From the sequence record OP617743.1: a stretch of DNA of 64,000 nucleotides; one strand, 5' to 3'. Below the pieces are notes generated by a model. The model saw only the letters and a program-made list of their open reading frames with translations. It made no database searches and was not told the DNA's origin. The position numbers were made by a program, and so were the translations under genes. Shown here piece by piece: positions 2,235-18,257 of the stretch; the first letter of the stretch is position 1, and each line of letters opens with the position of its first letter. Source of the stretch: Klebsiella phage KP13-26.

Positions 2235-2506
2235 CCTGATATTATCTGATATTTTAAAAATTTTCTTTTTAGAATAAAGGGGGTGGGGTTCAATATTTCA
2301 GAGCCTCACCTCTGCCCTACCGATAAGGTTAGAAAGACGTTTTTATAAACCTCTCGCCATATTTAAAATAACAGTTGACTAATTTCGTAAGCTGTTGTAA
2401 TAGACTAAGAATCTGTTTTGATAGACTCTTGAACAATATCCAAGTAAAGTTTTAACAAAGTGTTCAGATTATTTAAAACTTTTGCGGGAGTTACTTTGAA
2501 AATATA

Positions 2507-2632
2507 GCAAACTGAAATTTAAAATTTCCCTAAATTATTTAAAGTTTTTCTGTATCTTACTACAGAAAAAACGTAAACTGAAATTTAAAATTTTCAAAAA
2601 ATTCCCCAATTATTAAAAGTTTTTCAACTTTT
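2507..2632. repeat. Two ~50-bp AT-rich direct repeats (AAACTGAAATTTAAAATTTYC...TTATT-AAAGTTTTTC) in a 480-bp non-coding region
   Basis: Copies at ~2509-2560 and ~2575-2630, seen by eye. Confidence 0.6.
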
Positions 2633-2711
2633 CGATCTGCATTTTTCCAAAAGCAAAATTTAGAATTCTCAAAAATTTGTCAGATGTTAATGAGAACTAT
2701 TATCATGTGTA

Positions 2712-2780
2712 TTGCAAATGATAATCATTCTCATTCGTATTTCGCTTTTATTTGAGAATGAGAATCATTCTTATTTGCAG
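2712..2780 (+). promoter_or_regulatory. Fur-box-like operator pair
   Basis: AATGATAATCATTCTCATT at 2716-2735 matches 15 of 16 positions of the Fur consensus GATAATGATAATCATTATC. A second copy, GAGAATGAGAATCATTCTTATT, is at 2754-2780. Confidence 0.4.
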
Positions 2781-3030
2781 AATGACACGCAGGTTCGGTG
2801 TTTGTCTCGCGATTCCCGTTATCCCTCGCCATGTAGAAATAATAACATAACCAACACTAGGATCAAGCGTCTTTACATTTCTTTACAAAACTATTCAAGG
2901 CGAACTACCGGCGATTCACCTTCCGACCTGGCCCCAGCGCCTGGTACGTTAGCCCCGCCTTTTCGCCGTGGGGTGGCGTGTCCTCTTCTTTATGGATACA
3001 TTATGCCCCATTCCCTGGGACGTGTCAACA

Positions 3031-3300
3031 TTATTTTTGGGCCTTTTGTGCGTCCAGGACGCCACGCCAAAAGGAGATCCGATCCGGTTTATAACCACAC
3101 GCTGAATAGGCCGCGCCGCATATATCCACTACACACATTTTTACCGCCTTTAAGCCGTGTCCGTGGGCTATAACGTTTGATATTGGGAAAGTGTGTAAGT
3201 CTAGGACTTCCATCACGGTTAACCCTGTATCGCTTGCTACCTGGTGAATGGTGCCACCTTGCCAGCCTAGCGCCTTCATTAAATGTTCTGTATTGGTCAT
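3031..3300 (-). CDS. hypothetical protein (89 aa) in a GC-rich island
   Basis: Minus-strand ORF with AGGAG RBS 8 nt upstream. Strand is opposite to the surrounding early genes. Confidence 0.5.
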   Translation of the reverse strand: MTNTEHLMKALGWQGGTIHQVASDTGLTVMEVLDLHTFPISNVIAHGHGLKAVKMCVVDICGAAYSACGYKPDRISFWRGVLDAQKAQK

Positions 3301-3370
3301 TGCTTGATCTCCTGTGAATGTCTAATGAGTATAAGCCAGGGGCGCACATAGTGCAAGCCCCCAGGATCAA

Positions 3371-3547
3371 TTAATTATACAGGGTATCGGCTAACACTTC
3401 CCCGTTTTCCGCTACAACCTTAACCCGATAAAATCCACCGTCCAACATGCGCAGCGCATGAGGCAAGGGGACAGATCGCGCCTGGCAATGGTTAGCGGAT
3501 GTTTCCCAGGTGTACAGCATTACGATAGTGTCGGACGTTGTGATCAT
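3371..3547 (-). CDS. hypothetical small protein (58 aa)
   Basis: Minus-strand ORF below the 60-aa track cutoff. AAGGAAAG RBS. Sequence MITTSDTIVMLYTWETSANHC... Confidence 0.4.
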   Translation of the reverse strand: MITTSDTIVMLYTWETSANHCQARSVPLPHALRMLDGGFYRVKVVAENGEVLADTLYN

Positions 3548-9748: not shown

Positions 9749-9834
9749 TTTATACAGCGTTTTCTATAGTGAGCCATACAAACACCAGGGAGCACCATAA
9801 AAACCGCTTAGAACGTATTACAGGAGCTTAGACA

Positions 9835-15926: not shown

Positions 15927-16295
15927 ATGACTATCATCAATCTGAATACTACTATCAAAGGTAAAGATTTTGGCGGCGTAGTAGATAACGATCCTATGTG
16001 GAGTCTGTCAGTGTTTAAAGGTGATTTAATCGACGTTGTAACCATTGATAGCGGGTCAGATGACTATAAGTGTGAAATTCATCTCACTAACTGGTACACT
16101 GGCAAAGTTTACGCCCTGGATCGCGTGATCATCGGTCGAATCGAAACATTAGAGGACGAAGAAACCGGAGAAACCTTTGATTATTATATCAATAGCACTA
16201 ACCGTGCAGAACGCTTGTTAGAGAAGATGAAAGAAAAGGGAACTATTGATTTATCTCATTGGGTGGACATTACAAACGATCCAGCCTACAAATAA
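15927..16295 (+). CDS. hypothetical protein (122 aa)
   Basis: Internal ATG with AGGAAAACG RBS. Confidence 0.55.
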   Translation: MTIINLNTTIKGKDFGGVVDNDPMWSLSVFKGDLIDVVTIDSGSDDYKCEIHLTNWYTGKVYALDRVIIGRIETLEDEETGETFDYYINSTNRAERLLEKMKEKGTIDLSHWVDITNDPAYK

Positions 16296-16311
16296 AACAC
16301 CATTTCAAATA

Positions 16312-16340
16312 GGGCGCACAAAGCGCCGTTTCTTTTTGCT
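16312..16340 (+). terminator. Rho-independent terminator ending the early block
   Basis: GGGCGC-ACAAA-GCGCC stem followed by GTTTCTTTTTG. Confidence 0.6.
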
Positions 16341-16499
16341 TATCATTTAATGATAGCTTTTACCGATTGAAATCACTCACAGCAAAAAGTGAATAAATCG
16401 CGTTATGAGGTTTTCTAAGCAAGGTTGACTAACTACCAGGGGCAAGCGGTAAGCCGCTTAGAACGCATTACAGGAGCTTTAAAGGGCATAGCCACTATC

Positions 16500-17250
16500 T
16501 AAGTGATCAATAAATCCACCAATTTAACGATCTAATCAATAATGATAATCAATCTCATCTATCTGTGCTTAATTATGCAGAATATTGCATAATGTGATAG
16601 TGAGAATCATTTACAATCAAAGTAACAATTGACAATTTATCCAATCATAAACAATCAAATAATAAATAGATAAATAGTTATCTTGCTAACATATCTAATT
16701 GATATCATTTCATTAATTAACAATAACACAATAAAACAATCAACTAATCAATAATAAGCAATGAAATTATTATTAATCTACAATTCATTCTTACAATAAT
16801 AATCTATGAAATAATTAGCAAAGAATGTATTAGCAAGCCTACGCGGGAAACGTAGGCTGCTAATAATACCGCAACTACACCACCCCACTCATTACTATTC
16901 CTAATAGTAATTCGTGTTATTATGTAGCTTGCAATAATTGCAAGCGTAATGCTTCCGCTTACAATCATTACGTGCGGTATTATTAGCACGTTGTTAAATA
17001 ATCCTAGAGGTATTATTAGCTATCAAAGAATATCTAATAACCTAACGGTATTATTAGCCATATTGGAAATGGCAATAATGCCCACTATCACGAAGTGATA
17101 AACATACGGAATTATTAGCACACAAAGCAATTAGCATTCTAACAGAATAATTCATTGTGAAACAATTAGCACACTATCTATTTGCGGAGGAATTATTGAG
17201 TGAATAACGAAAATAATTCTATAGCTAATGAATAGCATTGTAATTATTAA
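16500..17250. other. AT-rich non-coding region with iterons (GGTATTATTAGC x4), a TTGCAATAATTGCAA palindrome and a CCTACG/CGTAGG hairpin; candidate replication origin
   Basis: No plausible ORFs. Iteron-like sites at 16975, 17008, 17046 and 17107, with an inverted copy at 16861. Confidence 0.45.
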
Positions 17251-17756
17251 GGATTAAATAATGAAAAGAATAACTATTGTCGGCGAAAACATTAGCGCGA
17301 TCAGCGCTATGTGTTGAGCATTAATGAGAATAAGAATTAATATTATTCGGGCGAGCAAATGCCCACGAAGTGGGCTATTGTTGAGCACAGAGCTAATACT
17401 ATTTGCGGGGAAAACATCGTTAGATGTTCGTTAGAACAGCTACGGAATGTTGAGCCACTTCTTTTAAAAGAGAAATTTTTAGGAATTATCTTGATTTTCG
17501 AGCCGTTTGATGCTATGCGCAGCATACCACTGTTCACTTATACAGTGGATTTGTCATGAGAATCGTTATCAGTCGCCTTTTGTGGCAATTTGGCACCTTG
17601 TAAACACATGTTTATTAATGCCAAGCCATTGATTTATAAGGATTTATTGTCAGTTTATCGTGATTGGCATGGAATATGGCTAATCTTTGACCAAAAGTGT
17701 CGTAAGTTATTGAATGATATTAAGAATGAGAATGATTCGCATTGATATTTGGGACT

Positions 17757-17818
17757 CGCGGAAATTTGAAAATGGGGGTGCCCGAAAATCGCGTTAAGCA
17801 CCTCTCGCAACCGCGAGA
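17757..17818 (+). ncRNA. GC-rich structured element (two stem-loops) inside the AT-rich non-coding region; possible small RNA or binding site
   Basis: CGCG...CGCG stem of 37 nt and a CTCGC-AACC-GCGAG hairpin. This is speculative. Confidence 0.2.
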
Positions 17819-17870
17819 AAGCGAGCCATATTGACGCCAACATATTGATATTATTAACATTTCTTTGCCA

Positions 17871-18033
17871 AATAGGGGGTGGCTTAAAAATTCCGGGTAT
17901 ATGGGAGAAATTTTGTAGTTTTTGTGGTAATTGTATGTAAAATAATCAGCAATAATAATGTTTAATTGATAGATATTTCCGATGATAATCCTGTGTAAAT
18001 AGGGGTAGCTTTTTATTTCCGGGTGTTGTAGGA
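17871..18033. repeat. Two ~35-bp direct repeats AATAGGGGTRGCTT...TTCCGGGT
   Basis: Copies at ~17871-17905 and ~17999-18033. Confidence 0.5.
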
Positions 18034-18257
18034 TGATTGTCATGAAAGATTGCTATGTGTAAGGAGAGAAAGATGGAAGCGTTAATGATACTTGGTGCTA
18101 TAGTTGTGTTGCTGCTGGTACTATATTTTGCTCCAGGAGATGGTTCAGATTGGGATACATATTTCTAAAGAGGAGAATGTTAGGTGCAAGATGAGAGTAA
18201 AAACTTAAGAATGGAAGTCATGTAATAGCTAGTGATCGTCATAACAAAGGAGAAATT

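Follow-up and report, generated by a model that had tools for sequence, protein, structure and literature searches.

A gene-free region of Klebsiella phage KP13-26 as the probable genome-end junction, with a conserved palindromic element beside the terminal repeat

Introduction

What purpose does a long gene-free stretch serve in the genome of Klebsiella phage KP13-26? The stretch in question, positions 16296-18054 of a 64,000-nucleotide (nt) piece of sequence record OP617743.1 (hereafter, the window), had been singled out in an earlier note, made from the letters alone, as an AT-rich candidate replication origin or regulatory hub. Our comparative analysis indicates that it is very probably the concatemer junction of a myophage with a short direct terminal repeat (DTR), the sequence of which was assembled as if circular. 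Left of the repeat lies a conserved palindromic element (16837-16988), for which we weigh several possible roles.

The window derives from a myophage of the Stephanstirmvirinae, with ~94% identity to the Klebsiella phages phi1_175008, FKP3, and KP2025 over a 1.77-kb query. Related myoviruses of this subfamily have genomes of ~149 kb, and Stephanstirmvirinae genomes carry direct terminal repeats at their ends (PMC12695924). The closest relative has a gap of ~2 kb without coding sequences at the equivalent place. Homologs of the region were gathered by a search for Gp30.8-like protein loci (5 loci), a pattern scan of IMG/VR (4 loci), and a metagenome scan (16 loci), and conservation along the region was profiled as coverage by 11 distant homologs.

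Results

A probable terminal repeat and its edges

Window positions 17453-17795 are ~93% identical to the ends of the linear phi1_175008 record (PQ360875), which match each other exactly over 343 bp. The phi92 record (NC_023693) has an annotated left copy of the DTR at 1-343 and a right copy at 148270-148612, the latter 1.1 kb past the last gene, which specifies a Gp30.8-like protein; identity of the window repeat to the left phi92 copy is ~70% overall and 69-81% in blocks. Homologous ends are also repeated exactly over 329 bp in the Schickermooser record (328 bp in the published description; PMC6563267), and PhageTerm assigned a 342-bp DTR to phage BME3 (PMC12210895). One end of record OR062526 falls exactly at ...TGTTG, and six records begin at the position equivalent to window 17453. 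In phi92, Schickermooser, and PQ360875, the left edge has the motif TGTTG|AGC and the right edge CGCGTTA|AGCAC (the bar marks the repeat edge), and the OR062526 end fits TGTTG. Both motifs occur in the window, at 17449-17455 and 17790-17801, with GTTR|AGC as the form common to the two edges. These edge motifs and the homology to mapped ends thus place the predicted repeat of KP13-26 at 17453-17796 on the plus strand (344 bp).

The genomic setting of the repeat is the same as in the relatives: it lies in non-coding DNA between the Gp30.8-like gene and the small genes of the left end. Conservation among the distant homologs peaks at both repeat edges, with 17700-17800 covered in 11/11. By homology, 16296-17452 corresponds to the presumptive non-coding right arm of the chromosome and 17797-18054 to the presumptive non-coding start of its left arm. 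The repeat would be present at both ends of the virion chromosome, and the window would show one collapsed copy. The main identity of the region, genome ends, is ordinary for this phage group.

Two deposited sequences look misassembled near the repeat. The BME3 deposit (PP239276) contains the junction region twice, with an extra 342-bp copy and Ns, and the FKP3 deposit (PP895363) has a 317-bp piece in triplicate.

Each repeat edge is part of a longer module. In most lineages, the left edge is preceded by TATTTG(C)GGGG and a GC-rich hairpin, followed by (T)GTTG|AGC; the hairpin sequence is lineage specific, but outside the phi92 lineage a hairpin is retained (z of about -2 to -3), whereas the phi92-type module has a C-run and no hairpin. 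The window contains three such modules in tandem on the plus strand (17273-17316, 17341-17383, and 17399-17452), each composed of TATT..G-run, GC hairpin, and (T)GTTG|AGC, with cut positions at 17316/7, 17383/4, and 17452/3. The hairpin GCCCAC-GAA-GTGGGC, already reported in the earlier note, lies at 17361-17375. Among close relatives, phi1_175008 has a single left module and KP2025, L021, and L032 have two. This variation, between one and three copies, points to duplication of the module through recombination or faulty end processing. The left edge could alternatively be at 17317 or 17384 if an upstream module were used; homology favors the last one (17453).

The right-edge module (17745-17796, plus strand) is similar in layout, with ATATTTGGGA..., a G-rich spacer, and GAAAATCGCGTTA|AGCAC; it is invariant in 15 homologs and covered in 11/11 of the distant ones. 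A GC-rich double stem-loop had been described at 17757-17818, with the suggestion of a small RNA from 17750-17830. The proposed stem-loop overlaps this module and straddles the right DTR edge, and neither it nor the small RNA withstood analysis: the fold is insignificant (z = -0.99; 33/200 shuffles are as good), no pairing is conserved among 11 homologs, and the stretch itself forms the right edge of the repeat. A conserved RNA or DNA structure at this edge was accordingly rejected.

A covarying palindromic element left of the repeat

The best-conserved part of the whole region is an element of ~150 nt, found in 11/11 distant homologs versus 5/11 for the neighboring gene and present as one copy in each of 132 phage records. 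Window positions 16829-16988 (160 nt) match dozens of Escherichia Phapecoctavirus records at ~75%. The element begins with hairpin H1 (16837-16857), GCCTACG-CGGGAAA-CGTAGGC, which confirms the CCTACG/CGTAGG hairpin of the earlier note, and continues as a multibranched, cloverleaf-like set of palindromes (16858-16988), which folds better on the minus strand. Its outer stem, P1, of 15-16 bp, joins 16858-16873 to 16973-16988 with perfect complementarity over 16 nt. Enclosed by P1 are hairpin P4 (16875-16927), palindrome P3 (16927-16945), and hairpin P2 (16946-16972), so that H1 is followed by a four-way junction. P3 is the palindrome that had been called perfect, and its arms indeed are (GCTTGCAA-TAA-TTGCAAGC, with a 3-nt center). 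In all genera, ATTAGC cores stand on either side of H1 and of the closing stem, and the motif is enriched here, 9 of the 23 plus-strand copies in the window falling within 2.7% of its length.

Compared with shuffled sequences, the fold of the element has z scores of -7.7 on the plus strand and -11.1 on the minus strand. Its pairing is supported by covariation across 17 distinct homologs: 12 pairs show compensatory double changes and 97.6% of alignment cells are paired, a result reached by 0/500 shuffles, and slid controls yielded only 1-4 such pairs. In H1, three of the seven plus-strand pairs (eight on the minus strand) show compensatory changes, with pairing in 100% of cells. Neither the outer 10 bp of P1 (GCTAATAATA/TATTATTAGC) nor the P3 palindrome (GCTTGCAA-N3-TTGCAAGC) ever varies; elsewhere in the stems the sequence varies freely while pairing is kept. 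The distance from P1 to the repeat on its right is 465 nt in the window, and in all relatives the element stands 200-460 bp left of the repeat. An inverted repeat capable of folding back, as T7-type hairpin-assisted duplication of the terminal repeat would call for, is present left of the repeat in the form of P1, and its pairing is maintained by compensatory changes.

The strand preference is consistent. In 17/17 homologs the minus-strand fold is the more stable one, by 11-24 kcal/mol, with z scores down to -13.9. On the structure predicted for the minus strand, G-U cells outnumber the reciprocal A-C type 50 to 2, in a choice of structure that itself favors this strand; the same count on the plus-strand structure gives 5 pairs versus 1. 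The inner hairpins are near-perfect palindromes with centers of 0-4 nt, one of them without any loop, and this symmetry looks like a feature of DNA rather than of RNA.

These properties fit a cis-acting, folded minus-strand DNA involved in end processing or priming, an assignment that we make with low confidence. In its broader form, our tentative proposal is that the element may represent an undescribed class of cis-acting folded nucleic acid of large myophages with short DTRs, acting either as a minus-strand fold-back primer or recognition structure for duplication or processing of the repeat, or as a structured RNA for packaging or replication.

A competing reading, which we regard as unlikely, takes 16837-16988 as a structured non-coding RNA of the minus strand, possibly the cis-acting part of a longer leftward transcript. 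The strong covariation, the better minus-strand fold in every homolog, and the accumulation of G-U pairs (with the bias just mentioned) would all suit it, and the window has a promoter-like TTGATA-17-GATTAT on the minus strand with a start ~10 nt before the element. This promoter is not conserved, however: within 330 nt, 5/16 homologs have no sigma-70-like site, and the rest have theirs at differing positions. The conserved promoter and terminator that would mark an independent small-RNA gene were not found: no sigma-70-like site is positionally conserved on the minus strand of the 16 homologs, and no U-tract follows H1. The element also has no Rfam match, the short-centered inner palindromes speak for symmetry at the DNA level, and the double changes in P1 and H1 occur with almost no one-sided intermediates. 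On the plus strand, a candidate promoter inside the element (TTGCAA-16-TACAAT) was rejected, as other genera have 13 or 34 nt between the two hexamers.

The element and the edge motifs have a bounded distribution. A covariance model of the element found no match in FBKp34 or in the 2.6-kb non-coding region of rV5, and the edge motifs were not found in either phage. The system thus appears confined to the phi92, phAPEC8, and Klebsiella clades. The rV5 stretch (NC_011041, 104013-106618) is gene-free, lies between convergent genes, and corresponds in place to the 459-bp terminal repeat of its relative LL12. As it contains neither the palindromic element nor GTTR|AGC edges, the Vequintavirinae presumably use different terminal signals.

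The iteron-like repeats and the origin question

The repeats that had been taken for iterons are real. GGTATTATTAGC occurs on the plus strand at 16976, 17009, and 17047, with one mismatch at 17108, and on the minus strand at 16859, i.e., 1-2 nt from the coordinates first reported. Five matches compare with 0.45 expected in the 64-kb window, and 0/100 shuffles reach five. What had escaped attention is that two of them, the inverted copy and the first direct one, pair with each other as the arms of P1. They are not origin iterons but the paired arms of the conserved palindrome cluster.

The other three (17009-17119, plus strand) duplicate the 3' arm of P1, as GGTATTATTAGC at 17009 and 17047 and as GGAATTATTAGC at 17108, and are followed by ATTAGCA at 17130 and 17165. 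The window has three of these copies, phi1_175008 has two, and KP2025 and L021 have none, the deletion endpoints of the latter two falling within the repeats. Coverage of 17000-17440 by distant homologs is 0/11, and the array is absent from other genera. Judging from this comparison, the three copies are clade-specific, recent tandem copies of the P1 3' arm.

This history bears on the proposal of a replication origin, in which the iterons would bind an initiator, the AT-rich tract at 16480-16835 would melt, and the element would serve as a minus-strand priming or primosome assembly site. The repeats do adjoin a tract of 24% GC, and mean GC skew steps from ~+0.09 left of the region to ~+0.2 right of it. 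In addition, the strand-asymmetric, multihairpin element of ~150 nt resembles single-strand initiation sites in layout. However, the direct array is variable and dispensable, being missing from KP2025, L021, and other genera, and its repeats, spaced 33, 38, and 61 nt apart, lack helical phasing; the region contains no DnaA box (TTWTNCACA) and no conserved ORF, and no initiator gene adjoins it. GC skew, one of the checks proposed in the earlier note, shows no sign change at the region. Such skew is uninformative as an origin test: a step is expected at physical ends wherever the origin lies, and in the related rV5 skew shifts track the direction of transcription. An iteron-type origin is thus unsupported and the origin proposal as a whole very doubtful, but the conserved palindromic element itself may have an origin function.

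Promoter-like and Fur-box-like sites in and beyond the repeat

Within the DTR, two rightward promoter-like sites can be read on the plus strand. The first (17491-17519; TTGATT, 17-nt spacer, TATGCG) retains the -35 motif TTGAYT and the 17-nt spacing in every homolog inspected. The second (17590-17618; TTGGCA, 17-nt spacer, TATTAA) is a more conjectural site that is kept in 4-7/11 distant homologs and corresponds to TTGACA-17-TAGACT in phi92. Past the repeat, two plus-strand copies of AAATAGGGG..GCTT..TTCCGGGT (17870-17905 and 17997-18032) precede the first left-end ORF (ATG at 18055). The two had been presented as 35-bp direct repeats; repeats they are, but imperfect ones, with ~78% identity over 23 nt and one indel. 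A related motif, AGGGGGTG..CGGGTATAC..AAATTTT, occupies the corresponding position in homologs of the phi92 type and in others, and the two copies are probably promoter or regulatory sites.

Palindromes resembling Fur boxes (about GAGAATGAGAATCATTCTC) are a further recurrent signal, with 11 plus-strand hits of at least 14/19 in the window versus ~2 in shuffles (~5-fold). They lie at 2686-2772, 14162, 16538, 16596, 17552, and 17722. Matches to GATAATGATAATCATTATC reach 14-16/19 at 16538, 16596, and 17552, and 17/19, relative to the E. coli Fur box, in the phi92 repeat (positions 74-92). These palindromes are candidates for host Fur sites or for a phage operator.

With these sites in view, one might regard the region as serving transcriptional control only, as an extended leader with promoters and operators in which the repeats would bind a regulator of the phage or host, and without any role in DNA ends. 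The conserved promoter-like sites in and after the repeat and the enriched Fur-like palindromes, including the one in the phi92 repeat, would suit this reading. It is highly improbable, however, since it accounts neither for four independent records ending exactly at GTTG|AGC or GTTA|AGC nor for exact terminal duplications, and regulatory sites fit a terminal region and are to be expected there.

A second ORF-poor, low-GC stretch occurs at 2235-3400 (GC content 0.358, skew near zero), with three Fur-box-like palindromes within 90 nt. One of these boxes (TGCAAATGATAATCATTCTCATT) is nearly identical to the box in the phi92 terminal repeat.

Non-coding character, upstream segment, and neighboring genes

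The region is indeed devoid of credible ORFs from the stop codon at 16295, which ends the plus-strand operon with the Gp30.8-like gene as its last member, to the ribosome-binding site (RBS) and ATG at 18055. The longest ORFs (107, 66, 64, 62, and 61 amino acids) were rejected as genes on the basis of tblastn against relatives, in which they showed frame breaks or diverged faster than the DNA. The AT-richness also holds, with a GC content of 0.341 versus 0.402 in the whole window and of 0.236 in the tract at 16480-16835. This tract contains the Fur-box-like palindromes at 16538-16556 and 16596-16614, ATTAGC at 16814 and 16829, and AATCAA repeats, six of the 30 copies across the 64 kb falling within 16534-16746, in agreement with the CAATCAA-rich tract of the earlier note. 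Its blocks 16540-16610 and 16720-16800 are kept in 5/11 distant homologs.

Upstream of this tract, the terminator reported at the start of the region is present as a GGCGC-ACAAA-GCGCC stem (16313-16327) with a T-run. This intrinsic terminator (16313-16340, plus strand) closes the upstream operon, is kept in 6-8/11 distant homologs, and is annotated at the homologous place in FBKp34. Next comes a duplicated leader and RBS without an ORF behind it (16425-16480, plus strand), containing GCTTAGAACGCATT at 16456-16469. The latter had been reported as an element opening the region. The sequence is there, with diverged copies at 9806 and 10947, but as the relic of a duplicated leader and RBS: the copy at 9806 leads into AGGAG...ATG of a real ORF, and at 16456 the ATG has become ATA, followed by a stop. 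The copy at 16456 appears to be a vestige of a gene start that has been lost. The duplication between 9760-9830 and 16420-16480 covers ~45 nt.

The first ORF past the repeat (18055-18168) specifies a 37-amino-acid hydrophobic peptide, has a good RBS, and is unannotated in the closest circular record. Small plus-strand genes continue until ~29.5 kb, followed by minus-strand genes of nucleotide metabolism (RNR, ThyX, and ligases). Searches of the window for tRNA and tmRNA genes found none, Rfam 15 gave no match at gathering score (and no relevant match to 16200-18200 at E <= 5), and Tandem Repeats Finder returned only two trivial 8-nt arrays.

Discussion

Most sequence features that drew attention to this region are genuine, and the observation as a whole is partly confirmed. 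Its description as a regulatory or cis-acting hub was right in spirit and is partly supported, the region being dense in conserved non-coding signals. What it overlooked is the terminal repeat itself, the pairing of two iterons around a large conserved structure, and the tandem cut-site modules.

Several points weigh against our interpretation. The termini of KP13-26 itself are predicted from homology, not observed, and the three tandem left modules leave the left edge ambiguous, so that the repeat may measure 344, 413, or 480 bp. A motif in the same orientation at both edges does not by itself account for staggered cuts. As for the palindromic element, other readings of its features compete with the proposed role: the minus-strand bias could reflect RNA or mutational bias, the unvarying P3 palindrome and 10 bp of P1 may simply be sites at which proteins bind double-stranded DNA, and packaging and origin functions are not mutually exclusive.

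With these reservations, a working scheme for the genome ends can be proposed. The terminase or its nuclease would recognize the edge modules, namely the G-run, the hairpin (none in the phi92 type), and GTTG|AGC of the left edge and the GAAAATCGCGTTA|AGC of the right edge. During cutting, the one repeat copy present at the junction would be duplicated, as in T7-type phages. The element would fold as minus-strand DNA, and its fold-back could prime synthesis towards and through the repeat, a direction suggested by the 3' end of the minus strand, which points away from the repeat; alternatively, the element might be a recognition site for primase or packaging. After injection of the left end, the rightward promoter-like sites in and past the repeat would drive the first genes.

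The placement proposed here would fix the start and end of the linear genome for KP13-26 and its Klebsiella-infecting relatives, and it suggests that several deposited records are misopened or carry artifactual duplications at the junction. TGTTG|AGC ... CGCGTTA|AGCAC offers a simple rule for finding the termini in a therapeutically used phage group. To our knowledge, the recognition and duplication of short exact terminal repeats are understood only for T7 and T3. The shared cut motif, the copy-variable edge modules with their hairpins, and the covarying palindrome cluster provide mutable targets in large myophages. What merits follow-up is the palindromic element next to the repeat, undescribed so far and supported by covariation, as well as the cut motif common to both edges and its tandem modules.

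Comparison with known systems

The closest counterpart is phi92 (Justusliebigvirus), in which the Gp30.8-like last gene, ~1.1 kb of non-coding DNA, the 343-bp repeat, ~0.3 kb of non-coding DNA, and the first gene follow one another in the same way; the repeats are homologous and the edge motifs identical. The two phages differ in that the window has three tandem left modules with a G-run and hairpin and phi92 has one module with a C-run and no hairpin, and in the three extra copies of the P1 3' arm, none of which occur in phi92.

In contrast to the direct repeats near an AT-rich tract that lambda ori and iteron-type plasmid oriV share with this region, the repeats of KP13-26 have 12-nt cores, irregular spacing, and 0 to 3 copies among close relatives. 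Two of these repeats are complementary arms of a single stem, and neither an initiator gene nor DnaA boxes accompany them.

As an analogy of layout only, an outer stem around small palindromes with short repeats nearby, and strand-specific folding over ~130-150 nt, are also seen in the inverted terminal repeat of adeno-associated virus (a parvovirus), in G4 oric, and in the sso and ssi sites of plasmids. In KP13-26 the element lies inside the genome, 0.5-0.8 kb away from the right end, and not at a terminus; the genome is double-stranded, and the element has no homology to these structures.

The junction of T7 and T3 offers a further parallel. There, too, a short, exact, non-permuted repeat lies in non-coding DNA with promoters, and short repeats and an inverted repeat occur left of the terminal repeat. 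In T7, duplication of the repeat and a hairpin intermediate have been described (PMC4281155). The systems share no sequence similarity, and KP13-26 is a myovirus of ~149 kb. Where T7 and T3 have a single inverted repeat, the predicted genome end of KP13-26 has a four-way, cloverleaf-like palindrome cluster.

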